This document shows positions 4,718 through 21,388 of a DNA stretch of 64,000 bases, piece by piece; the stretch's first letter is position 1; every line of letters begins with the position of its first letter. The stretch covers positions 112,706-176,705 of the forward strand of contig JBCCYL010000003.1 of the NCBI GenBank assembly GCA_039189765.1, read 5' to 3'. Source of the DNA: Cyanobacteria bacterium P01_F01_bin.150. GTDB lineage: Bacteria; Cyanobacteriota; Cyanobacteriia; CAKZMO01. The notes beneath the pieces are model-generated. The model was given only the letters and a program-made list of their open reading frames with translations, made no database searches and was not told the origin of the DNA. Both the position numbers and the translations under genes were made by a program.

Positions 4718-7700
4718 CTAGACAAAGTCAGCACTGGTGATTTGGTTTACGTCAACTCCGACTAGAATAGCGACTTGATTTTGTCCTTGGGACAGGATGG
4801 TATTGTTGCCCTCTTGAGTCAGGGTGAGTTTATTAAATTTAACGCCTCTCAGCAAATCAGTGCCATCTTGGAATTTGCGAATGGTATCGGGTCCTCCCTT
4901 CTTAGAAAGAACGAAAATATCCTTTCCTCCGCCACCAATTAGCAGGTCTTCCCCTTTACCTCCAACTAATTTATCGTTGCCGCCGCCCCCTTTAAGAACA
5001 TCGTTGCCCTTACCGCCTTTGAGAGTGTCATTACCGCCGCCGCCGATTAGGACATCGTCTCCATTGCCGCCCTTAAGATTGTCTCGACCCTGGCCACCTA
5101 CTAGACGATCGTTGCCGTTAAAACCCAGCAATTTATCGTTCCCTCCTTGTCCTTTAATCGTGTCGTTAGCATCGCTACCGACTAGGCGATCGCCACTGGC
5201 ACTACCCACAAGATCTAAGGAAGCAGAAGCACCATCATCGCTTTTAGGGGTAAGAACATCCGTTGAGGTATCCAGGTCATTAGCGGTTGGAGATGTCGTT
5301 GGTGTAGTCGGCGTTATTGTGGCCGTATCATCACTGGGAGTCGTTGTCGGCGTTGTCGGCGTTGTTGTTGGCGTTGTTGTTGGCGTTGTTGTTGGGGTGG
5401 TTATGGGAGGCGTTACTACGACCGGAGCCTCTGCGATGGTGAGAACCATCTGGTTGGCCACGCTTAAGCCAGCTCGGTCTGTGGCCATAACCTCAAGCGT
5501 TAGCTGTCCTACATCACTATCTGTGGGGGTACCGCTAAAGGTTTGGGTATTTCCATTGAAGACTAGCCAACTGGGCAAAGCTGCACCGTTGGATTGTTTT
5601 GCACTAAAGGTTAGGCGATCGCTTGGGTCCACATCTGCAAACGTACCGTCAGGCACAGTCGCCGTAAAGGCAACGGTTGCGGTGGCAGAGGCATCGGCCA
5701 GAGGACTGGCGACAGTGGGGGCATTGTTGGCAATCACATTCAGTTCAAAGGTGTCTTCTGTGGATTGATTATCTTGGTCCGTGGCGGTAACTGTCACCCG
5801 AATGGTTCCCACATCGCCATCGGTGGGTTGACCACTAAAGGTTTGGGTCATGACATCAAAGGTAAGCCAGCCGGGCAAAACGCTGCCATCGTCAAGATTT
5901 GCCGTATATGTCAATTGATCATTAATATCCACATCTTGGAACGTAAGCGGGTCAACGGCCATATCAAAAGTGGCTCCAGCGATCGCCACCTGGTCGGCCA
6001 GCGGATTGATAGTGGTAGGCGCATCGTTTAATGGTTCCACCAGTAATTCAAAGGTTTCTACTGTGGACACGGTACCATCACTAACGCTAACGCTAATGGT
6101 GGCTGTACCGACCTGATTAGATTGTGGCGTGACGGTAAGAGTACGACTATCACCACTGCCAGTTATAGCAAGTCCATCCACTGTCACTAGATCGGGATTT
6201 GAAGAGGTAGCAACAACCGCAAGCGCCCCAGAGGGGGTTTCAGTATCGCTCAAATTGTTAATCTCAACAGTGACGCTGGTGTCCTCATCAAGGGTTTGGT
6301 CGCTGATGGCATCCATTTGAGGCGCATCATTGCTTGCAGCAACAGTGACATCAAACTGGGTAGAGACCTCATCGGTGCCATCACTGGTAGTAACGGTGAC
6401 AGTCGCACGTCCTGACTGGTCCGCAGCAGGGGTAATGGAAAGGCTGCGATCGCTCCCCGTCCCGTCTAAGACCAAACCGGATTGGGGCAATAACGCTGAA
6501 TCGGACGAAGTAACACTTACCGTCAGATTGTCAGGATCGAGTTCTAAATCATCCAATCGAATGGCGATCGCATCAATCACCCCATCTTCATCCACCGTCT
6601 GGTCGGCGATCGCCTCGATCATTGGCACATCATTTACGGCTTCTACATCCACCGTAAAGCTATCGGTAGTGATATTTGTGCCATCATTTACCGTTATCGT
6701 TAGTGTCGTTGTGCCAAAGGCATTCGCGACAGGTTCCAAACTGAGAGTGCGATTTTCGCCATTGCCGCCAAGCATAATATTGGCATCGGGCAAGAGCCCA
6801 GGATTGGAGGACGTAACCGTCACCAGCAAGTTGTTGGCATTAGTTTCCAAGTCGCTAACTGTAAATGGAATATTGGTAAGGGGGGTATCTTCTAGTGTTG
6901 TTTGGGCGATTGGAACCTGTAGCGTTGGCGCATCATCAACCGGATCAACAACAACATCAAAGATTTGGGTGGCGGTAGCAAAGCCATCACTGAGGGTAAG
7001 GGTAATGGTGCTGGAACCAATAGCATTGGCGCTAGGAGTAATAGATAGAGTGCGATCGCTGCCTGAGCCTTCCACCACAATATTATTGACGGGAATCAGT
7101 TCAGGATTGGAGGACGCTGCCGTAATCGTCAACGCTCCCGCTGGGCTTTCCACATCAGATACTTGAACCGAAATATTGGTAAGGGATGTATCTTCCGCCG
7201 TGCGTTGAGTGGCGATTGGCCCTAAAACTGGCGCATCGTTATCCGGCACCACCGTAATTTCAAAGGTTTGGGTAGAGATATTGGTGCCGTCGCTAACCTT
7301 TACGGTAATTTCAGTGGTGCCAAACTGATCGGGGGCAGGCAGGATCGTCAAACTGCGATTGGCGGTTGTCCCAGTAATCGTGATATTTTCGTCAGGAATC
7401 AACACCGTATCGGTGGACGTAGCACTGACCAATAAGGCACCAACTGGGTTGTCAGAATCCGCAACCACAAACTCAATGGGGGCAGAAAGCGTATCTTCTA
7501 AGGTGCTCTGTGCATCAATAACCGACACAATGGGCGCATCGTTATCGGCTCCAACGGTCACAGCAAAAGAGGTCTCTGTGGTTTTATCTCCATCAGTGAC
7601 CATTAGGGTAACAGTGGTGCTGCCGGACTGATCAGCCTCTGGGGTAAGCACTAGGGAGCGACTAGTGCCAGTCCCGCTGATAGCGATGCCGTTGGGCGTC

Positions 7701-10700
7701 AGCAGATCTAAGTTAGAAGAGGTCGCAGTAATGCTTAACCCGCCGATGTCGGAGTCAATATCATCCACGGTAAAGGGAATGGCATTGGAAAATCCATCTT
7801 CAGAAATCGCCTGATTGGAAATAGTTGAGATGCTGGGAGCATCATTGACGGGAGTAACCGTTAACTCAAAGTCTTGGCTGCTGGATGTAATTCCATCACT
7901 AACCGTCACGGTAACCATGGTGGTTCCAGATGCATCTTCGGCTGGAGTAATGGCGATCGCCCGTTCACTGCCCGTGCCCGCAATGGTAATATTTTCGTCC
8001 GGAACCAAAGCACCGTCAGCCGCTGTGGCCGTAACGGTAAGCTCCCCAGCGCTATGGTCAAGATCAGAGATGGTAACCATGATTGGAGAAGTTGTGCCGT
8101 CTTCTGCAACCGACTGATCTGCTATTACAGATAGGGTAGGAGCATCATTTTCAGCAGCGACAATCACCTCAAACATCTCAGTTGTTGTAATGTCGCCATC
8201 GTCCACCAAAAGAGTAATAGTAGCCGTGCCGCTGCTGTTGCTGACGGGAGAAATGCTTAGGGTGCGGTCATTTCCCCTACCGCCAAGGATAATTTGGCTG
8301 GAGGGAATTAAAGCCGAATTGTCAGAGGTGGCCGTAACCGTGATCGCCTCAGCATCCGTTTCCAAATCATCAACGGTAAAGTTTAAGGCTGCAACGGTGC
8401 CATCTTCTGCAATTAGCTGGTCGGCGATCGCAGTAATCGTCGGCTGATCGTTGACTGCATTGACAACCACATCAAAGGTCTGGGTGACGGTGGCTTCTCC
8501 ATCATTAACGGCAATAGTAATCGCCGTAGTGCCGGACAAATCGGCATTGGGAGTAATAGTTAGAAATCGCTCGCTGCCTGTGCCCGTAATGACAATATTG
8601 TTGTTGGGGACTAAGGTGGTGTTAGAAGACGTAGCCGTGACCAGTAGGTTTTCCGCTGCCGTTTCAATATCACCAATGGCGATCGCCAGCCCGTCTATGG
8701 GAGTGTCCTCATCGGTTATTTGGGTGGCGATCGCCGCTAACGTGGGTTGATCATTATCAGGGACGACCACAACTTCAAAGGTCTCTTCTGTCAGTAGGCT
8801 GCCATCATTGACGCCAAGGGTAATCATGGTAGTGCCAAATTGATTCACCGCAGGGGTGACGGTGATCGTCCGATTTGCGCCGTTGCCACCTAGGGTAATC
8901 GCGCCATTGGGAATCAGCGCTTGATTGGAGGATATAGCCGTAACCACCAGGTCTTCAGTTAGGGTCTCCACATCACCAATGGTAAAGCTGATCGCCTCAC
9001 TCCGGCTATCTTCGACGATGATCTGATTGCCAATGGAGCTGAGGGTCGGTGCATCATTCTCCTCTCCCACTGACAAATTAAAGGTTTCCGTTATCCGATC
9101 AACCCCATCGTTAACGGTGATAGTGATAATAGCTGAACCAGAGGTATTGCTGGCAGGGTTTAGGGTCAGCGTTCGATCTTGACCCGAACCGCCTAGAACA
9201 ATGCCATTAGCTGGCAGTAAATCGGGGTTGGAGGATGTCGCGGTAATGATTAGACTATCCGGAGCCGTCTCCACATCACTAACGCTAAAGGTCAGCCCTG
9301 AGACCGTCTCGTCTTCTCCGATCGCCTGGTCTTCAATGGCCGTAATCGTGGGCAAATCGTTTTCGGGAGAGACAACCACATCAAAGGTTTGAGAAACCGT
9401 ATTATTTCCGTCATCCTCTAGCTGAACCGTAATGGTTGCCGTGCCAAAAGCATTGGCCACAGGGGTAAAGGAAAGCGTTCGAGCGGTACCGCTACCGCTG
9501 ACCACAATGGCGTCATTGGGCAATAGATCCGTATTATCTGAACTCGCGGCAATGGTGAACAAACTGGTGGGAGTATCCACATCATTGACGCTAAAAGGAA
9601 TGGATACCGTATTGCTATCCTCCAAAAGCTGCTGGTCGTTAAAGATGGACAGCACAGGGGCGTCGTTTTCTGGAGCTACCACTACATCAAAGGTCTCGGT
9701 AGTAGTGTTCAGCCCATCTTCAACCGTTACGGTAATCGTGGCGGTGCCAAACTGATCGGCGGCGGGGGTAATGGTTAGGGTGCGATCGCCCCCAATCCCC
9801 GATAGCTGAATATTGTCGTTGGGAATCAGGGTTGTATCAGAGGACATGGCCTGAACCGTCAACGTGTGAATGGCATCATCCACATCATCGATTTGAACGG
9901 CGATCGCCTCCGTTACCCCATCTTCAGCAATTGCCTGGTCGCCAATACTGCTAATAGTAGGGGCATCGTTTTCCGGCGATACGGTGACGCTAAAGGTCTC
10001 AGTGGTGGTGAGGTTTCCATCCCCCACAGTAATCGTAATATCGGTAGTCCCCGTTTGATTGGCTATCGGATCAATGGTGATAGTGCGGCTATCTCCCGTC
10101 CCCGTGGCCACTAAGCTATCCACCAGCGTCGTATTGGAGGAGCTAACGTTAACAGTTAACGTATCGCTGGCGGTTTCAGCATCACCAATGGTAAACGTAA
10201 AGGCATTATTGGTGCTGTCTTCAAGGATGACGCGATCGCTAACCGCACTAATGGTGGGGGCATCGTTTTCTGGATCGACCGTAACCGTAAAGGTTTCTTC
10301 AGTTGTGTTTTCCCCATCCGTAACGCTGAGGGTAATTATGGCAGTCCCTGACTGATTTGGCTCAGGGGTGATAGAAAGGGTTCGAGCGTCGCCAAACCCC
10401 AGTAACTCAATATTGTCATTGGCAATCAAAGCCTGATTATCCGAGACAGCGGTGACCTGGAGAGCAAGGGACGGAGATTCAATATCACTGATGGTAAAGG
10501 GAATCGCCGTAATTGCTGTGTCTTCCGTGGTTGTTTGATCGCTAACGGCATTGATAGTGGGAGCATCATTATCAGGCGTTATGGTGACATCAAAGGTCTC
10601 CGTAACGGCATCAGCGCCATCATCCACTGTCAGAGTAATCGTGGCCGTGCCGTATCCATCGGCGGCTGGGGTCACGGTGATGGTGCGATTCTCCCCGGCT

Positions 10701-13009
10701 CCATCAATTTGAATATTACCATCGGGAATTAGGGTGCCATTGGAAGAGACTGCGGTTACGGTCAGATTTGCCGCAGCTGTTTCCAAATCACCAACCGTAA
10801 AGGCTAGCGCAGCAGTGCTACCGTCCTCGATAATCTGTTGATTATCAACGGAGCTAATCGTCGGTAGATCATTTACGGGCGTCACGGCAACCTCAAAGGT
10901 CTCCGTGGAACTCTTGTCGCCATCGCTAATGGTTAAGGTAATCGTTGCCGTGCCGTTAGCATCTGCCGCTGGGGTCACGGTAACCGTGCGGTTCTCTCCG
11001 GTTCCAGTGACGACGATGTTACCGTCAGAGATTAGCGTGGTATCCGAGGAGCTACCCACAACCGTTAAGCCGTTGACGTTGGAATCAATATCGCTGAGGG
11101 TAAAGGCGATCGCCCCCGTATTTCCATCCTCGTCAATTACCTGATCCGCAATAGTTGTACTGATAGGCGTATCATTAACCGGATCCACGGTAATCGCAAA
11201 CATTTGACTAGCGGTTTTATCCCCATCACTTACAGTCACGGTAATATCGGCAGTTCCGACCCCATCCGTAACGGGATTCACCACTAGGGTGCGATTGGCC
11301 CCCGTGCCAAACACCTCAATGCCCGCATTGGCCACCACCGAGGAGTCAGAGGAGGTCGCGGTAATCGTTAATTCGCCCGAATCGTTGTCGATATCCCCCA
11401 GAGTTAGGGCAATGGCTTGGCTGGGGGTGTCTTCATCGGTATTTTGATTGGCGATCGCTGCAATAGTCGGGGCATCGTTATCTGGATTAACCGTAACCTC
11501 AAAGGTTTGCTGAGTGGTATTTACACCATCGCTAACGTTAACCGTAATTACCGCAGTTCCAAATTGATCAGCGGTCGGGCTTAAACTAATGCTCTGATTA
11601 GCCCCCGTTCCGTTGACCGTAATAGCATTGTCAGCAATTAAAGCCTGGTTGGAGGATGTCGCTGTTACCGTCAAGCTATCGGTCAATGTTTCCTGATCGC
11701 CAATAGTAAAGGCGACATTTGCAAGATCCGTGTCTTCTAGAGTTTCCTGATTGGCGATCGCACTCACCGTTGGCGCATCGTTGACCTCATTGACCTGGAC
11801 ATCAAATGTCTCCGTTGTAGTATTTACACCATCACTGACCTGGAGCGTAATTGTGGCTTGCCCTGACGCTTCAGCTACGGGGGTGACAGTAACGCTACGA
11901 TCAGCCCCAGTACCGCTGATCACAATATCACCGTCGGCCACAATCCCCTGATCGCTGGATACGGCAGAAACCGTTAAATTACCGGCATTCGTTTCTTCAT
12001 CACCAACGGTAAAGGATAGGGCTGTCGTACTGCCATCTTCGTCAATGGCCTGATCCGCAACCGCGCTAATCGTAGGCGCATCATTTTCCGCCGTAACGGT
12101 AACGGTAAAGATTTCTTCTGTGACGTTAATGCCGTCGCTAACGGTAACGGTAATAATGGCCGTCCCAGATTGGTTCGCAGCGGGGAGAAAGGCAATGGAT
12201 TGATTGTTGCCTGTTCCTACTACCTGGATATTCTCATCAGGAAACAGGGCCAAATTACTGGATGATGTGGTGATAATCAGGTCATTGGCATCGATAGTCT
12301 CAGTATCGGCGATGGTAAAGGCCAAAACTGTTGCATTAGCATCTTCCGCAATAATCTGATCGTCAATGGCACTAATGGTCGGCGGGGTGTTGAAAACACC
12401 CGCGTAGGTTTGTTGTGTATCGGGGGCGATCGCAATGCTCGATTGTAAATCAGCCGCCAGTTCTCCAATACGATGCTCCAGCCCCCACACGCCTCCAAGC
12501 AAGGCATTTCCAACCTTATACGCCGATGCCGCAATGCTAGCTCCAGTCAGTTGGTGTAGTGTCCTCAGAAAAGATGGAGCAGACAATTGAGAGGCATGCT
12601 CAAGGGATGCAGCCACTTCACAGGCATAAAGGCAAATTTCAACAACCCCCCAGGATTGCAGCAACAGGCGGTACTGCTCTAAATCCGCAGAGGTAACCGT
12701 CTGTCCTCCTAAAGACAACTGCCCTGGAGCACCGTGACAGAAAATATGGAGATGGGTAATGGGATTGCTTTGAAGGGTAGCAGTGGCGATCGCATCGCTG
12801 ATCTCCTGTAGACCACCATTTGCATTTAGAACCAGCGAAGTCGCATTTGAAGAGAGGCCATTAACCAGCGCTTGAGGGTCGTCTACAAGGGAATCAATCA
12901 CGACCAAAAGATTGGGCGTGGGTTTGAGATTTAAAGTTGAATAAGAAGCAGTTCCGGAAAGAGTCTGGCCGAAATTTAGAGTATTGGTAGTCTGACCCAC
13001 AAGCGCCAT
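4718..13009 (-). CDS. Giant RTX adhesin: DUF4347, ~21 tandem ~100 aa cadherin/Ig-like repeats, 2 He_PIG-like domains, Thr/Pro linker and Ca-binding RTX repeats
   Basis: N-terminal LHIFCHGAPG/LYACEVA motifs, 21 NDAPTI..DQ..ED repeats, two LPxWLxF..TFSGxP domains and C-terminal GGxGND nonapeptides. Confidence 0.92.
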   Translation of the reverse strand: MALVGQTTNTLNFGQTLSGTASYSTLNLKPTPNLLVVIDSLVDDPQALVNGLSSNATSLVLNANGGLQEISDAIATATLQSNPITHLHIFCHGAPGQLSLGGQTVTSADLEQYRLLLQSWGVVEICLYACEVAASLEHASQLSAPSFLRTLHQLTGASIAASAYKVGNALLGGVWGLEHRIGELAADLQSSIAIAPDTQQTYAGVFNTPPTISAIDDQIIAEDANATVLAFTIADTETIDANDLIITTSSSNLALFPDENIQVVGTGNNQSIAFLPAANQSGTAIITVTVSDGINVTEEIFTVTVTAENDAPTISAVADQAIDEDGSTTALSFTVGDEETNAGNLTVSAVSSDQGIVADGDIVISGTGADRSVTVTPVAEASGQATITLQVSDGVNTTTETFDVQVNEVNDAPTVSAIANQETLEDTDLANVAFTIGDQETLTDSLTVTATSSNQALIADNAITVNGTGANQSISLSPTADQFGTAVITVNVSDGVNTTQQTFEVTVNPDNDAPTIAAIANQNTDEDTPSQAIALTLGDIDNDSGELTITATSSDSSVVANAGIEVFGTGANRTLVVNPVTDGVGTADITVTVSDGDKTASQMFAITVDPVNDTPISTTIADQVIDEDGNTGAIAFTLSDIDSNVNGLTVVGSSSDTTLISDGNIVVTGTGENRTVTVTPAADANGTATITLTISDGDKSSTETFEVAVTPVNDLPTISSVDNQQIIEDGSTAALAFTVGDLETAAANLTVTAVSSNGTLIPDGNIQIDGAGENRTITVTPAADGYGTATITLTVDDGADAVTETFDVTITPDNDAPTINAVSDQTTTEDTAITAIPFTISDIESPSLALQVTAVSDNQALIANDNIELLGFGDARTLSITPEPNQSGTAIITLSVTDGENTTEETFTVTVDPENDAPTISAVSDRVILEDSTNNAFTFTIGDAETASDTLTVNVSSSNTTLVDSLVATGTGDSRTITIDPIANQTGTTDITITVGDGNLTTTETFSVTVSPENDAPTISSIGDQAIAEDGVTEAIAVQIDDVDDAIHTLTVQAMSSDTTLIPNDNIQLSGIGGDRTLTITPAADQFGTATITVTVEDGLNTTTETFDVVVAPENDAPVLSIFNDQQLLEDSNTVSIPFSVNDVDTPTSLFTIAASSDNTDLLPNDAIVVSGSGTARTLSFTPVANAFGTATITVQLEDDGNNTVSQTFDVVVSPENDLPTITAIEDQAIGEDETVSGLTFSVSDVETAPDSLIITATSSNPDLLPANGIVLGGSGQDRTLTLNPASNTSGSAIITITVNDGVDRITETFNLSVGEENDAPTLSSIGNQIIVEDSRSEAISFTIGDVETLTEDLVVTAISSNQALIPNGAITLGGNGANRTITVTPAVNQFGTTMITLGVNDGSLLTEETFEVVVVPDNDQPTLAAIATQITDEDTPIDGLAIAIGDIETAAENLLVTATSSNTTLVPNNNIVITGTGSERFLTITPNADLSGTTAITIAVNDGEATVTQTFDVVVNAVNDQPTITAIADQLIAEDGTVAALNFTVDDLETDAEAITVTATSDNSALIPSSQIILGGRGNDRTLSISPVSNSSGTATITLLVDDGDITTTEMFEVIVAAENDAPTLSVIADQSVAEDGTTSPIMVTISDLDHSAGELTVTATAADGALVPDENITIAGTGSERAIAITPAEDASGTTMVTVTVSDGITSSSQDFELTVTPVNDAPSISTISNQAISEDGFSNAIPFTVDDIDSDIGGLSITATSSNLDLLTPNGIAISGTGTSRSLVLTPEADQSGSTTVTLMVTDGDKTTETSFAVTVGADNDAPIVSVIDAQSTLEDTLSAPIEFVVADSDNPVGALLVSATSTDTVLIPDENITITGTTANRSLTILPAPDQFGTTEITVKVSDGTNISTQTFEITVVPDNDAPVLGPIATQRTAEDTSLTNISVQVSDVESPAGALTITAASSNPELIPVNNIVVEGSGSDRTLSITPSANAIGSSTITLTLSDGFATATQIFDVVVDPVDDAPTLQVPIAQTTLEDTPLTNIPFTVSDLETNANNLLVTVTSSNPGLLPDANIMLGGNGENRTLSLEPVANAFGTTTLTITVNDGTNITTDSFTVDVEAVNDVPMIEAIADQTVDEDGVIDAIAIRLDDLELDPDNLTVSVTSSDSALLPQSGLVLDGTGSDRSLSITPAADQSGRATVTVTTSDGTDEVSTQFDVTVAASNDAPQMDAISDQTLDEDTSVTVEINNLSDTETPSGALAVVATSSNPDLVTVDGLAITGSGDSRTLTVTPQSNQVGTATISVSVSDGTVSTVETFELLVEPLNDAPTTINPLADQVAIAGATFDMAVDPLTFQDVDINDQLTYTANLDDGSVLPGWLTFDVMTQTFSGQPTDGDVGTIRVTVTATDQDNQSTEDTFELNVIANNAPTVASPLADASATATVAFTATVPDGTFADVDPSDRLTFSAKQSNGAALPSWLVFNGNTQTFSGTPTDSDVGQLTLEVMATDRAGLSVANQMVLTIAEAPVVVTPPITTPTTTPTTTPTTTPTTPTTTPSDDTATITPTTPTTSPTANDLDTSTDVLTPKSDDGASASLDLVGSASGDRLVGSDANDTIKGQGGNDKLLGFNGNDRLVGGQGRDNLKGGNGDDVLIGGGGNDTLKGGKGNDVLKGGGGNDKLVGGKGEDLLIGGGGKDIFVLSKKGGPDTIRKFQDGTDLLRGVKFNKLTLTQEGNNTILSQGQNQVAILVGVDVNQITSADFV

Positions 13010-13486: not shown

Positions 13487-14512
13487 TTACGGATTAGCAA
13501 CAGCAACAGATAGTTCGTTGGAAAAATTCTGGCGAATCCATTTGAGGCTGAGGTTTGCCACCTCCCGTGGAACTTCATCTTGGGGACAATGGCCTGCATT
13601 ATTCAGCACAACAAAGTCATCCACTGAATCAAAATCCGCCCACGGCTTAGCCATATCCATCGGTTCCCATGGATCGTCCTGGCCCCATAAAATCAAGGCT
13701 CGACAGGGGAGCTGAGAATACAGGTCCTCCGGTAACGGCCCTTGGGAATAGCGAGTAAAGGCGGCAAATACATCCGCTGCACCGGGGTCTGCGGCTGGCC
13801 CCATCAGAATATCCACCAGTTCATCCGTCACCGCATCCGGCTGAGCATAGGCCTGGAGCAAGACTTGTCGTACCGTTCGGGGACGGGCCAGGGCGCTAAA
13901 AAACAAACGGCTAAACCAGGACATTCCCAGCATCGATTGAATAATCGGCGTACTAAGCTGCTGATGCCATGGAATTTGGCTGCGTCGCCGTTCGTGGAGC
14001 ATCCGCACGGAGCAGTTAATGGTAACAACGCCTTGGAATAGATCTGGGTAGGCGATCGCCGCCTGCATTGCCGCAATACAGCCAATGGAATTGCCAATCA
14101 AGAAGGCGGGAGTCTGCACCACTTCCCGACAAAAATCTCCAAGCTGCTGGCCCCAGGTTTCAAAGGTATAGGGCAACGGGTCCCCCGGCGTGGGCTTATC
14201 TGAACCGCCAAATCCCAGCAAATCAATGGCATACACCCGACAGGACTCAGCCATCAGTGGCATAACCTTACGCCAGTGCCCCCATGAGGCCCCAAAACCA
14301 TGCACTAAGATCACTGCAGGTTTCTGAAGCTCCTGGGATTTATCTTCTGAGCCATTTTCCCCATGGTTCTCTTCTCCCTGGACCTGATAGCAAATATTAA
14401 AACCTCGCCACTGCCAAGACTTTGCAGGGGGAAACGACTCGATGGACGTCGAGTATCTAGTTAAGTCGGTAGCGTTTGTCAAAGAATCGGAAGTCGCAGG
14501 CATAGAACTCAT
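13487..14512 (-). CDS. Alpha/beta-fold hydrolase
   Basis: HGFGAS oxyanion motif, GNSIG nucleophile elbow, WGQDD and AGHCPQDE. Confidence 0.92.
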   Translation of the reverse strand: MSSMPATSDSLTNATDLTRYSTSIESFPPAKSWQWRGFNICYQVQGEENHGENGSEDKSQELQKPAVILVHGFGASWGHWRKVMPLMAESCRVYAIDLLGFGGSDKPTPGDPLPYTFETWGQQLGDFCREVVQTPAFLIGNSIGCIAAMQAAIAYPDLFQGVVTINCSVRMLHERRRSQIPWHQQLSTPIIQSMLGMSWFSRLFFSALARPRTVRQVLLQAYAQPDAVTDELVDILMGPAADPGAADVFAAFTRYSQGPLPEDLYSQLPCRALILWGQDDPWEPMDMAKPWADFDSVDDFVVLNNAGHCPQDEVPREVANLSLKWIRQNFSNELSVAVANP

Positions 14513-14576
14513 ATCGCACGCCGAGAGTAACAGTCAGAATTTTACAATATGTTAACGCAGGACAGGATTAGTCCCC

Positions 14577-14740
14577 ATAATGGAGCTTAGGAATGGATGA
14601 GTTTTGAGTTTTGAGTTTTGAATTTTGAGTTTTGAGTTTTGAATTACCCGTACGACTTAGGATTTCTTCTACGGAGACGCTGCGCGAACAAGACTCAAAA
14701 TTGATAACTTATCAAATGCCCATTCCTTAGCCCCGTTTAT
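14577..14740. repeat. MITE-like fold-back element containing (TTTTGAG/A)n heptamer tandem repeats
   Basis: Imperfect terminal IRs GGAGCTTAGGAATGG / CCATTCCTTAGCCCC. About 6 heptamer copies at 14599-14645, with an inverted ACTCAAAATT copy near 14693. Confidence 0.6.
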
Positions 14741-14843
14741 CGATAATTGCTTATCGACAATAATGTCCCAGTCACAAATCTATTGTACTAGTATTAAGTA
14801 ATCTGCTACAGTGAAGCCAAAGCGCGGTTTTGGGAGTAGGGCA

Positions 14844-15034
14844 ATGGTTTCTCAAGCGCAATCTAACATTCTGCAAGGTTCAGCGTCCGCTCAAAAATAT
14901 CCGCCTCTGCAAAGTGGCGATCGCCTCTATTGTTAGATGAGGATGCCTTGCTAAACGATCGAATGACAAAAGTGTTAGAGGTCGTGCAGGCAGTACTACA
15001 GTCAATGGAGCATAAAACAATGGCGCTGACGTAA
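14844..15034 (+). pseudogene. Internally deleted Uma2-family endonuclease remnant
   Basis: N-terminal ...YPPLQSGDRL joined out of frame to C-terminal LLLDEDALLNDRMTKVLEVVQAVLQSMEH. Both pieces resemble the termini of cyanobacterial Uma2 proteins. Confidence 0.6.
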
Positions 15035-15048
15035 GCTTCTGGTGGGCC

Positions 15049-15081
15049 AGATCCCAGGGTTCTTAAAGAACCCTGGGATCT
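15049..15081. repeat. Near-perfect REP-like hairpin upstream of the RAYT gene
   Basis: AGATCCCAGGGTTCTT-A-AAGAACCCTGGGATCT, 16 bp arms. Confidence 0.7.
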
Positions 15082-15126
15082 AAATCCGCCTGTGGGTTGG
15101 GGGAATCATTATCGTGAGAATTAGAG

Positions 15127-15918
15127 ATGATTCCCTCTGTGTTGAATATGCCAAGACAACCGCGAGACTTAAAACCAGGGTATTGCTATCACATCACGAC
15201 AAGATGTAATAATCGAGAATTTCTTCTCTATCGGCAGGAATGCAGGGAAGTATTTCTCTATGCTATTAAGCAGGCCCAAGAGAAATTTGACTTCAAGCTT
15301 TATGGACTATGCATTATGAGCAATCATGTTCATTATTTGCTTGAACCAAAAGCCCCGAACGACTTGCCTAAAATTATGCATTGGCTCAACTGGTACACGG
15401 CCATGTGCTTTAACCAAATGCTGGGGCGTACTGGTCACTTTTGGGAAAAACGATACTTCAGCGCTGGATTCCCTAGCTCAGACCATGCAAGAGTGCTCAA
15501 TACACTGCGCTACATCCATGCCAATCCCAAAACGGCAAAAATGCAGCATGGGTTTTTCTATGACTTCAGCAACTACGGTTCCCATGAACGAATGACCAAT
15601 GACGGGATTACCCAATGGCATTCTGCATTTCTATCGCTGGGTGAGTCACTTGAAGACTGTGCAGAAGCCTATAAACAGTTCTGTAATCGCTATAAACCCA
15701 AGGAAAAACCCGCTAAGAAATCAAGTTGGGGTGGTCGGCTTCTCGCCAAGATGGAAGCAGCGGTGAAGACCAAGAGGAAAAAAGCTAAAACATCACCGGG
15801 TCAGACTAAGCTATCGCTTCCGTGGGAGCAGTACCAGGTATTGAATTGCCCTGAAATTCAGTCGATCGCTAGAACCTTTATCAGCGCTAACTCTTATCCA
15901 ATCAGCGGATCACCTTAG
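15127..15918 (+). CDS. HUH Y1 transposase, REP-associated (RAYT/TnpA-REP-like)
   Basis: YHITTRCNNRE N-terminal motif, HUH motif MSNHVHYL, GHFWEKRY, catalytic Tyr in LRYIHANP and a Lys-rich C-terminal extension. The start may be 15148. Confidence 0.88.
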   Translation: MIPSVLNMPRQPRDLKPGYCYHITTRCNNREFLLYRQECREVFLYAIKQAQEKFDFKLYGLCIMSNHVHYLLEPKAPNDLPKIMHWLNWYTAMCFNQMLGRTGHFWEKRYFSAGFPSSDHARVLNTLRYIHANPKTAKMQHGFFYDFSNYGSHERMTNDGITQWHSAFLSLGESLEDCAEAYKQFCNRYKPKEKPAKKSSWGGRLLAKMEAAVKTKRKKAKTSPGQTKLSLPWEQYQVLNCPEIQSIARTFISANSYPISGSP

Positions 15919-15971
15919 TAAATTTGTTTTTTTAGGGGTTGTTGAATTCGAGGGCGATCGCTAGAATGCAC

Positions 15972-16234
15972 GGTAAAGCTGAAATTCCAGTTAAAGGAGA
16001 CCACTGGAAAGCTAATTCCAGTTTACCTTTGGGCCGTATGCTTGGGCCGTATGCGAGGTAAAGCATCAATAGCAGGTTACGCAGTTCGATTTAATTGAAT
16101 ACGCACGAACAAGAATTTTGATGTACCAGTCCTGACAAATTAAGTTCGGCATTGTTTTATCCCAGTGGATTGCTGCTTTGGTGCGGTTATCCTATCTTCT
16201 CTTCGTATCTGGGTTGATGCAGTGCCGAATTTTT
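15972..16234 (+). ncRNA. Candidate structured ncRNA downstream of the RAYT gene
   Basis: TTGTTG-N17-TAGAAT promoter-like signal (15939-15967), three stem-loop domains and a final stem followed by a T-run. No ORF of 60 aa or more. Confidence 0.5.
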
Positions 16235-16347
16235 GGTTTTTAAAGCCAAGCCAATTGGTTTTTGGAACCTAATTCAGGCCAACTCAGCCTAGCTCTGTGG
16301 AGAGGATATCTTCTGGGAATTGTAAACCCTAGTAGGAGAAAATCCTC

Positions 16348-16662
16348 ATGGCTCTATTTGATTGGCTAGGAAATAAACCTAAGCCAGAACCGGACAAAAC
16401 TCCATTGCTCCTTCTGGTTGAAGTCCCTGGACTGAAGCTTGAAATCAATGGAAAGCTGCTTGAAACCATTAAGGCATTGATGCCACTACTGTTGCGTGTG
16501 AAATCCCTCTCATGGATTGCCACACCTCTTACAGCACTGTGGTTTCTGTCTAGTGGAATTGGGGTAAATGTGCAGAGTAAGTTGTGTCACCAGCCTGTTC
16601 TGCCAAATACCCCACGGATTGCTGAGGATGTCACTCCTCAAAAGGGTGATCTATCGCTTTAA
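16348..16662 (+). CDS. Small hypothetical membrane protein
   Basis: AGGAG RBS, ATG start, a hydrophobic segment and a downstream terminator. Confidence 0.6.
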   Translation: MALFDWLGNKPKPEPDKTPLLLLVEVPGLKLEINGKLLETIKALMPLLLRVKSLSWIATPLTALWFLSSGIGVNVQSKLCHQPVLPNTPRIAEDVTPQKGDLSL

Positions 16663-16700
16663 ATCAAGAACGCTCAAAGTAATCTTGATTTAACAGTTTC

Positions 16701-16740
16701 AGCCTGGATTCCTGGTCAGAGGAGTCCGGGCTTTCTTGTT
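16701..16740 (+). terminator. Intrinsic terminator
   Basis: AGCCTGGATTCCT-GGTCAG-AGGAGTCCGGGCT followed by TTCTTGTT. Confidence 0.6.
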
Positions 16741-16840
16741 GTAGCGTAGCCCTGCCCTCACTTCTCTGATCATACTCCTTTTTCCATAGTGGTGTGTGAC
16801 GAAAGAAAACGTCCGCCAGATTATCTCCATCACTCGGTAA

Positions 16841-17062
16841 CTAATCAGCAAGAACCAGTTTTTGCAGTTTAGATAGCTGCTTTTCCAAACTGCTGACGCG
16901 CTTGCTAGTACTAGCGCAGCTATCAGGTGTCGTCTGTCCCAGAAATTGAGCAATTGCCTCACGTACCAACTCACTCTCCGATTTCCCAGTTTCTTCCTGA
17001 ATAGACTTAAGCTGGATTGCATGAGCTTCAGGGACTCGCCCGCCCACATGAATAAGGGCCAT
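16841..17062 (-). CDS. Ribbon-helix-helix (CopG-like) DNA-binding protein with a coiled-coil tail
   Basis: MALIHVGGRVP...TGKSESELVREAIAQFL is a typical RHH pattern. Start placed at ATG 17062. Confidence 0.75.
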   Translation of the reverse strand: MALIHVGGRVPEAHAIQLKSIQEETGKSESELVREAIAQFLGQTTPDSCASTSKRVSSLEKQLSKLQKLVLAD

Positions 17063-17298
17063 AAATTGTGAACTCCGTGAACGCGGTTGACGCACTCTGG
17101 CTATAGGAGTGCGTCTTTGTTTTTAGGATAAATTCGTTGACTTTGTTGACCGCGTTGACACTGTTTTGTCAATACTTATAAGAATTTTTGATCAGTGATT
17201 CTGCTGGTGAATTTGGTCGATTTTCTTATCAATAGGGTGAACCCCCATCAAATATAGGAAAATGAGTTCGTGTTTTCAGCAAAGACGAACTCGGCACC

Positions 17299-17850
17299 AT
17301 GGCTAAGCAAAATCGGCAGGGCAAGGCACTGATTCTGGAATTAGGACAGATTGAGGAGATAGTGAGCAATCTTGCTTATCCCCACAGCGCGATTGCTGCG
17401 TTGTGTTATTGGTCCGCTTCTCGTGCCGGTGAAATCGTTGCACTGGAATTTAGTGCTATCGGTCCCAGCTCGCTGTCAATCAAACAGAGCAAAACTAAGG
17501 CCGTGAAAGAAATTGGTTACTACAGCCAACTAACCGAGGCTATAGATTTAATTCACCAACACTCTGGGCAATATTGTTTTCCTAGCCGTAATGGCACTAC
17601 TCACCTCACTCTCAGGGCATTTCAGAAACAACTCGACAATTGTTTTGATTGGCTAGGGATTAGTGGGGCATCGTCTCACTCGTTCCGCCGCTCGATGGCT
17701 ACCCATCTATATGAATCAAAGGTCGATTTGCAATCGATTAGACAAATGACTGGGCACAAGTCGCTAGACTCACTGACTGAATATATTGATATCCCTCGAT
17801 TAGAAGCCCAAAGTAGGATTAGTGACGCTATCGCCCAGTGGCGTTCCTGA
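17299..17850 (+). CDS. Small tyrosine recombinase/integrase (catalytic domain only)
   Basis: R in SRAGE, K in QSKTK, HSFRR, GHKSL and the Tyr in TEYID: full catalytic set. Confidence 0.9.
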   Translation: MAKQNRQGKALILELGQIEEIVSNLAYPHSAIAALCYWSASRAGEIVALEFSAIGPSSLSIKQSKTKAVKEIGYYSQLTEAIDLIHQHSGQYCFPSRNGTTHLTLRAFQKQLDNCFDWLGISGASSHSFRRSMATHLYESKVDLQSIRQMTGHKSLDSLTEYIDIPRLEAQSRISDAIAQWRS

Positions 17851-21329: not shown

Positions 21330-21388
21330 GGCGCGTTCCTTCGGAAAAATTCCTACTGCCGTCTTCCCTACTTGAGAAGATGAACGAT
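21330..21388 (-). ncRNA. Glutamine riboswitch (glnA RNA motif)
   Basis: ATCGTTCATCTTCTCAAGTAGGGAAGACGGCAGTAGGAATTTTTCCGAAGGAACGCGCC: CGTT/AACG P1 stem, a P2 hairpin and an AGUA/GAA E-loop in P3. Confidence 0.82.

Follow-up and report, generated by a model that had tools for sequence, protein, structure and literature searches.

The DNA analysed here, a 64,000-nt stretch of the Cyanobacteria bacterium P01_F01_bin.150 genome (contig JBCCYL010000003.1; hereafter the window, numbered from its first nucleotide), encodes on its forward strand a RAYT-like Y1 HUH transposase of 256 amino acids (aa) at positions 15148–15918, assigned by family scan, homologue starts and fold match. The gene is preceded by a 33-nt perfect palindrome resembling repetitive extragenic palindromic (REP) sequences (15049–15081) and followed by a region that the original prediction had described as a separately promoted, multi-stem RNA that might work with the enzyme. 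The positions originally given for the stop codon, the promoter-like site, the stems and the palindrome all match the sequence. The longest open reading frame (ORF) opens at position 15127 and ends at 15918, with the TAG stop codon at 15916–15918. Since all homologues begin with MPRxPR, which places the start codon of the window gene at 15148, and since the database copy of the window protein consists of 256 aa, the start codon was set at 15148. The protein is recognized by the Pfam model Y1_Tnp (4.6e-20) and carries the HUH motif SNHVHYL and the catalytic tyrosine motif RYIHANP; the two HUH histidines (H67 and H69) and the tyrosine (Y129) are invariant across 25 aligned family members. The top NCBIfam model was REP_Tyr_transpos (NF047646), with 65.2 bits against an equivalog cut-off of 80, and we therefore use the label RAYT-like rather than that of the equivalog. 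The transpos_IS200 model scored 27.4 bits, under its cut-off of 55.

A sequence search of the PDB chains with the RAYT-like protein returned no match. An AlphaFold model, made from 25 family sequences, reached a mean predicted local distance difference test (pLDDT) score of 69.9, with values above 80 in the core and below 50 in a Lys-rich segment spanning residues 217–237. Its top PDB match was chain 4er8_A (E = 1.7e-7; template-modelling (TM) score 0.67, target-normalised), which corresponds to the E. coli TnpA-REP protein with a REP hairpin and outranked the ISDra2, IS200 and IS608 transposases as a fold match. The family scans and the structural match thus bear out the original assignment of the gene: it is a RAYT-like Y1 HUH enzyme, and not a RAYT equivalog. 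Compared with the RAYT/TnpA-REP system (E. coli YafM, PDB 4er8; the REPtron), the window protein is alike in its Y1 HUH chemistry, its nearest fold and its best NCBIfam model, and differs in the sub-cut-off score, in a length greater by approximately 110 aa and in a conserved C-terminal extension rich in Lys and Arg. This extension is conserved family-wide, including clades whose 3' flank is wholly different; consequently, it cannot be a specific adaptor for an RNA encoded downstream, as had been suggested.

The motifs of the protein also allow a comparison with the published TnpA-Y1 subclasses. In the passages of the two surveys that deal with it, subclass 2.1 (Bertels group 1) is characterized by a length of 238 aa, the motifs NHVH, W[EQ] and Y[IV]HLNP, C-terminal domains and 'no' REP (PMC6006769; PMC5581495), and is said to occur mainly in proteobacteria (Quentin et al. 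2018, PMC6006769). The window protein resembles it in NHVH, WE, YIHxNP and a length of about 240–260 aa, a likeness of motifs alone with respect to those passages. The cyanobacterial subclasses 2.4, 2.7 and 2.8, as far as the same subclass descriptions go, carry WQ or W[YH] and other HUH variants (PMC6006769), in contrast to the WE and NHVH of the window protein.

The RAYT-like family is cyanobacteria-wide. A protein search yielded 727 relatives at E ≤ 0.001 out of 800 candidates; the 120 matches listed share 60–100% identity over approximately 95% of the length, all named ones among them are cyanobacterial, and the nearest of those listed are P0002 (79% protein identity) and P0003 and P0004 (70% each). 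Among species-representative genomes, 496 stretches encode a relative, and the best 80 of these loci, from 69 assemblies, were compared; the contigs of P0002, P0003 and P0004 lie outside this set. Within these best 80 loci, 60 assemblies hold one copy, 8 hold two and one holds four. Further members, some of them fragments, are found on plasmids of Nostoc and Cylindrospermopsis. A prevalence of one or two copies per genome may be a further likeness to RAYTs; as to vertical inheritance, the synteny described below speaks for it, and the plasmid copies, the fragments and the taxonomic scatter of the window's clade do not. In a quick maximum-likelihood tree of 86 rows, with Shimodaira–Hasegawa-like approximate likelihood ratio test (SH-aLRT) support only and with loci L012 and L070 omitted (ORFs <230 aa), the window protein falls in a clade of 13 rows (SH-aLRT 97). 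This clade, which is taxonomically scattered, comprises P0001–P0005, P0007, P0012, P0107 and the loci L002, L046, L056, L057 and L068.

The palindrome upstream of the gene consists of two 16-nt arms (15049–15064 and 15066–15081) that are 100% complementary around a 1-nt centre, and an outer GGTGGG/TCCGCC helix lengthens it to approximately 15041–15090. It was found by inverted-repeat search, has no strand assigned and sits 66 nt upstream of the start codon. The folding tests on the window used 200 dinucleotide shuffles per piece. Folded as RNA, the palindrome reached -35.1 kcal/mol (z = -7.21; 0 of 200 shuffles as good), and folded as single-stranded DNA (ssDNA), z = -6.34; the hairpin with 16-nt arms noted originally is therefore real. 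Moreover, the palindrome sequence recurs 4–5 nt past the stop codons of homologues in four loci (L051, L044, L067 and L038). A search of 675 kb (the 80 loci plus the window) for this constant-length 33-nt family (AGA..CC....TCT) recovered 15 members. Seven of them are no more than 150 nt from an end of a RAYT-like ORF; as such stretches make up 3.6% of the sequence, about 0.5 would be expected there. L044, L051 and L067 seem to have inherited their copies from a single event; when these are counted once, 5 of 13 members remain within that distance, approximately ten times the expectation. The palindrome family thus adjoins homologous genes far above chance, which is the REP-beside-RAYT pattern.

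The resemblance to REP sequences has its limits. No GTAG-type tetranucleotide adjoins the foot of the palindrome, either in the window or in the family copies, which share the AGA...TCT ends instead; a GTGG at 15042–15045 belongs to the outer helix and is unseen in the other copies. The absence of GTAG directly at the foot and the presence of one palindrome in 64 kb distinguish the window from the RAYT/TnpA-REP system, with which it shares a short perfect palindrome, from a family enriched near homologues, beside the gene. No related palindrome was found on the 3' side of the RAYT-like gene: the idea that the last hairpin of the 3' flank (stem 3, described below) is a degenerate copy of the upstream palindrome was discarded, as 116 of 500 shuffles aligned as well as the best local alignment. 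Separately, many of the Nostocales loci carry a second palindrome family, TGTAGAGACG...CGTCTCTACA, with GTAG at its foot (for example, L030 2886–2917 and 6456–6487, L078 5402–5433 and L029 7177–7208); these are probably of the classical GTAG-tagged REP type and unrelated to the palindrome of the window.

On the 3' side of the gene, a promoter-like site is located on the forward strand at 15939–15967, consisting of TTGTTG (15939–15944), a 17-nt spacer and TAGAAT (15962–15967). The signal originally reported after the stop codon is present as placed, but its -35 hexamer is weak, agreeing with TTGACA at 3 of 6 positions, and it escaped a consensus promoter scan. Across the 64 kb, the relaxed pattern TTG-N20-TANAAT has a single instance, which is this site, with 3.1 expected from shuffled sequence. 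From the reading of its sequence, the site is a possible promoter, no more. The region downstream had also been described as free of ORFs, which holds for ORFs of at least 60 aa, but shorter ones of 20–45 aa exist on both strands. The next ORF beyond it (16348–16662, forward strand, 104 aa) has an AGGAG just upstream of its ATG and one hydrophobic segment, and no relative of it was found among 5.8 billion proteins. Because this ORF is an orphan, the entire 3' neighbourhood appears to be lineage-specific.

The three stems proposed between these two points differ greatly in stability. Stem 1 (15972–16027, forward strand; arms 15972–15986 and 16014–16027) contains the inner TTCCAGT/ACTGGAA helix described originally, and two copies of AATTCCAGTT (15983–15992 and 16014–16023) together with a single ACTGGAA create alternative, competing helices. 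Its stability is marginal, with z = -2.01 on the forward strand (5 of 200 shuffles as good) and -2.97 on the reverse strand. A direct-repeat search located an exact 13-nt tandem duplication just after it, TTGGGCCGTATGC twice over (16029–16054, forward strand). Stem 2 (GCATCAA/TTGATGT; 16064–16126, forward strand) does not rise above chance, with z = -1.28 and 25 of 200 shuffles as good. Stem 3 (16142–16241, forward strand) is a long, G·U-rich hairpin of 91–97 nt with internal loops, whose arms lie at 16142–16165 and 16209–16232 and which is followed by the U-run TTTTTGGTTTTT (16230–16241). It folds with -39.6 kcal/mol (z = -6.93; 0 of 200 shuffles as good) on the forward strand and with only -20.7 kcal/mol (z = -3.53) on the reverse strand. 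This drop is the signature of G·U pairs and, therefore, of an RNA-level structure on the forward strand. The whole 291-nt stretch from 15960 to 16250 behaves in the same way (z = -2.36 on the forward versus -0.21 on the reverse strand), so that the downstream structure is strand-specific and stems mainly from stem 3. Given these per-stem scores, the proposed multi-stem non-coding RNA reduces to one strong hairpin, a marginal region and noise. The combination of a stable stem, a U-run and strand specificity makes stem 3 look like a terminator.

If this region encoded an RNA partner of the enzyme, homologous sequences would be expected next to other members of the family, and none were found. 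A blastn search with the 429-nt flank (15919–16347) against the 80 loci gave nothing better than E = 0.73; the window holds no second copy of the flank, nor of any other part of the locus; and a distant-mode search of the PLSDB plasmids returned no match to the flank DNA, which disposes of similar DNA in plasmids. The Rfam comparison proposed originally agrees in that no known family matches the flank: the best hits of an Rfam 15 scan of 14500–17000 by E-value were eukaryotic miRNA models (E = 0.7–1.2), and the gathering-threshold scan of the whole window gave a single match, a glutamine riboswitch, and none in the 3' flank. The alignment of homologous flanks, on which the original proposal had been made to depend, went against it as well, since there is no conservation in the 80 loci, the five clade mates included, and the flanks of the window and of these five loci are unalignable, with 0 consensus pairs; only the flanks of L057 and L068 resemble each other. 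As the flank matches no Rfam family, no other sequence of the window and none of the 80 loci, a RAYT partner RNA in this position is not supported.

The 3' ends of homologous genes are conserved in a different manner. Using an nhmmer profile, we detected a conserved element at or overlapping the gene end in 66 of the 80 loci. It spans from GTGCCAGGTA to GCGAGAGAAGAG (for example, L011 4754–4875 and L077 4784–4906) and measures exactly 122 nt in 43 of 56 measured copies and 117–126 nt in 55 of them. A convergent gene encoding a GUN4 domain follows the element in 65 of the 80 loci, with N-termini that vary between TIR, NACHT and CHAT; in L039 the tblastn match covers the TIR part alone, and in L082 a separate kinase gene annotated by NCBI adjoins the GUN4 gene. 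Most members of the window family are thus tied to this element and a GUN4-domain gene instead of to a palindrome of the RAYT/TnpA-REP kind. The locus L070 (2296–6173) contains a second complete element and a second GUN4 gene, without a second RAYT, which indicates that the element tracks the GUN4 gene. L049 (4776–8737) likewise holds a second copy of the element, and these second copies, located 2.7 kb (L070) and 3.8 kb (L049) downstream, suggest arrays of element-plus-gene units.

The 122-nt element itself does not behave as a structured RNA. RNAalifold assigned 0 consensus pairs to 55 sequences of the element; in a sample of every fourth of these (14 sequences, 30 mononucleotide shuffles each), there was no excess stability (mean z = +0.04 on the forward and +0.76 on the reverse strand); and an Rfam scan of 10 of the 80 loci gave no match to it. 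Inspection of the consensus by eye identified no convincing σ70-type promoter on either strand, and a full-text literature search with motif strings of the element retrieved unrelated cancer papers only. In L023, an insertion of approximately 2.2 kb (4797–7036) splits the element near model position 50 and holds reverse-transcriptase-like ORFs; from reading their translations, it may be group II intron-like.

The first ten bases of the element, GTGCCAGGTA, are present in 68 of the 80 loci, always on the forward strand, and nowhere else in those loci except in the repeats of L057. Measured from the last base of the stop codon, this motif sits anywhere between 93 nt upstream and 248 nt downstream; depending on the locus, it encodes VPGIG (frame 0), encodes CQVS (frame 2) or is left untranslated. 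Being kept in two frames and in non-coding DNA, the motif must be constrained at the nucleotide level. Furthermore, tandem duplications of 21–33 nt begin at the motif in L032 and L049. The window contains GTACCAGGTA at 15831–15840 (forward strand), within the RAYT-like ORF and 87 nt before the end of the stop codon, and the 55-sequence nhmmer profile aligns model positions 3–32 to window positions 15828–15859 (E = 0.056). A match of this type occurs once in the window, compared with 0.18 expected, and 17 of 100 shuffles contain at least one; GTACCAGGTA is probably the window copy of the motif, and it is solely its homologous position that makes this convincing. The window retains the motif alone, without the 122-nt element. 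The 3' flank had seemed by eye to include an element homologue (CAGTTTAC..., ATGCGAG), a candidate that was abandoned when nhmmer found nothing in 15919–16347.

A peculiar arrangement of the motif is found in a member of the window's clade, L057 (3062–6951; Limnothrix sp. BL-A-16), where the RAYT-like gene lies inside a cyanobactin cluster. Downstream of the gene, four tandem units of approximately 510 nt are 98–100% identical outside a variable segment of 17–24 nt (90 nt in one unit). A copy of the motif follows 5 nt after the start of every unit, and the final 99 nt of the RAYT ORF are repeated in each. The start of a similar arrangement is present in L068. Such a pattern might be taken for a repeat-spacer or guide-RNA array, an explanation that we rejected: the variable segments are cores of anacyclamide/piricyclamide-type cyanobactin precursors on the reverse strand (TIGR04446, 69.6 and 68.5 bits; cut-off 35), and a LynF/TruF/PatF prenyltransferase gene lies upstream, adjoining the array.

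Taken together, we consider it somewhat more probable than otherwise that the locus consists of a RAYT-like gene with a REP-like palindrome and of a lineage-specific 3' untranslated region (UTR) or small transcript, at the end of which lies a terminator-like hairpin. The gene would belong to a cyanobacteria-wide, largely domesticated family of the TnpA-Y1 class, with the palindrome in its 5' flank, and the enzyme, by analogy with what is known of such families, would bind and nick folded ssDNA of the palindrome type through its HUH/Tyr site. The approximately 430 nt past the stop codon would be lineage-specific DNA transcribed on the forward strand, either as the 3' UTR of the gene or as a short RNA from the weak TTGTTG-N17-TAGAAT site, and the transcript would stop at the G·U-rich hairpin and U-run at 16142–16241, insulating the orphan ORF beyond. 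Stems 1 and 2 have no demonstrable function. What the analysis shows is the identity, fold and motifs of the gene, the hairpin statistics, the lack of a homologous flank in the 80 loci and the enrichment of the palindrome near homologues; transcription, termination and DNA-nicking activity are inferred. Most simply, then, the folded 'RNA' after the gene is a transcript end, and not a partner RNA. The window would contribute another RAYT-like gene, with a REP-like palindrome on one side and what looks like an ordinary transcript end on the other, which is useful for annotation and unsurprising.

Several observations weigh against this interpretation. The palindrome is present in a single copy in 64 kb, and high copy number is a hallmark of REP sequences; conserved palindromes flanking the other clade members were sought in L002, L046, L056, L057 and L068, and none were found. 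The terminator scan did not call stem 3, whose loop exceeds the limit of the scan, and the hairpin is not a canonical intrinsic terminator. The implied 3' UTR of 310 nt is long, and the RNA itself is postulated, as are its promoter and its 3' end. Lastly, of three clade mates whose 3' flanks were folded over 332 nt, two exceed shuffled sequence in structure (z = -4.26 in L002 and -3.74 in L056, with -0.53 in L046), so that a structured but non-homologous 3' flank might be a trait of the clade.

The alternative that fares best is that of an independent small RNA (sRNA), unrelated to the RAYT, of about 270 nt, starting near 15974 and ending at stem 3, or else an attenuator-type leader of the 16348 ORF. 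Such an RNA would account for the only TTG-N20-TANAAT site of the window being placed here and for the strand specificity of the structure, and the mutually exclusive helices formed by the repeated AATTCCAGTT and ACTGGAA, like the strong hairpin and U-run about 105 nt upstream of an ORF with an AGGAG ribosome-binding site, would suit a leader. However, it matches no Rfam family, there is no homologous flank among the 80 loci or the clade mates in which covariation could appear, the -35 hexamer is weak, two of the stems are marginal (stem 1) or at chance level (stem 2), and the controlled gene would be an orphan of doubtful reality. We regard this alternative as rather unlikely.

Less plausible still is an IS200-like mobile unit of approximately 1.2 kb (15041–16241), in which the palindrome and stem 3 would serve as the left-end and right-end hairpins of the Y1 transposase. 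The presence of a Y1 transposase gene with hairpins on either side, the occurrence of the family and its fragments on plasmids, and the 9 of 69 assemblies with 2–4 copies among the best 80 of the 496 loci would agree with such a unit. Nevertheless, the two hairpins are unrelated by the shuffle comparison given above, no part of the locus is duplicated in 64 kb, the IS200 model stays at 27.4 bits, the conserved neighbourhood, with a GUN4-domain gene in 65 of the 80 loci, fits a resident gene and not an insertion sequence, and the clade mates have no flanking palindromes; a mobile unit of this kind is thus improbable. IS200 is also of interest for its RNAs. Those sections of the published reports that concern them describe the art200 antisense sRNA and a 5'tnpA-derived sRNA, which come from or are antisense to the 5' UTR and regulate expression (PMC4513863, PMC5435999, bioRxiv 10.1101/2024.06.26.600842). 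As portrayed there, IS200 resembles the window in having a hairpin 5' of its Y1 transposase gene, and because that locus yields small RNAs, a non-coding RNA linked to an HUH transposase would not be unprecedented. In those accounts the IS200 RNAs lie on the 5' side, whereas the putative RNA of the window lies 3' of the gene and is unconserved.

A more speculative possibility, to which we give little credence at present, is that the family represents a domesticated HUH nuclease that targets a conserved site, GTRCCAGGTA, where its own gene ends, with opposite-strand units being arrayed or duplicated from that site; in the window, the 3' flank together with the orphan ORF would represent one such unit, or else the flank would act as a nucleic-acid partner. 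This reading fits because the GUN4-domain genes of L070 and L049 each come with a 122-nt element, because the cyanobactin precursor units of L057 each start 5 nt before a copy of the motif, and because the motif marks, or lies close to, the start of local tandem duplications in L032 and L049. The phylum-wide RAYT-like family, with its constant nucleotide motif and with the 122-nt element and GUN4 module of the sister clades, is of more interest than the window locus itself: if the motif were the working site of the enzyme, a testable function for a domesticated HUH transposase would follow.

The original idea, in which the multi-stem region would serve the HUH enzyme either as an RNA partner (a guide, scaffold or regulator) or as an elaborate ssDNA substrate, is the least probable of all, and very improbable: the region does follow the gene immediately, in the same orientation, and folds in a strand-specific manner, the 3' flanks of L002 and L056 are structured too, and the strongly conserved non-coding element of the sister clades indicates that the 3' flank is functionally loaded in the family, but no sequence or structure is common to it and any of the 80 loci, only one of its three stems is clearly above chance and looks like a terminator, the sister-clade element lacks RNA structure and tracks the GUN4 gene (RAYT-free in L070), the C-terminal extension is unspecific, and the L057 array consists of tandem cyanobactin precursor genes. 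The omega-RNAs of TnpB and IscB are transposon-encoded guide RNAs that overlap the 3' end of the nuclease gene. The window region is alike in position, being non-coding sequence in or just past the 3' end of a transposon gene. It differs in that the window protein is a Y1 HUH enzyme without a RuvC or HNH domain, its flank is unconserved and the sister-clade element is unstructured; beside the homologues of the 80 loci, there is no RNA conserved in position and structure of the omega-RNA or bridge-RNA type.

A few further features of the window were recorded. On the reverse strand upstream of the RAYT-like gene, an ORF of 2763 aa (4718–13009) contains many repeats of approximately 95 aa and a Gly/Asp-rich repeat region at its end, and its product reads as a giant repeat-rich surface or secreted protein. 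The glutamine riboswitch (RF01739) is located at 21330–21388 on the reverse strand and scores 54.1 bits, compared with a gathering score of 35. Just downstream of the orphan ORF, a small ORF on the reverse strand (16841–17095) has a weak RelB-antitoxin-like match (E = 0.007), and a 183-aa ORF on the forward strand (17299–17850) matches the C-terminal part alone of tyrosine recombinase models; these matches suggest mobile-element remnants.

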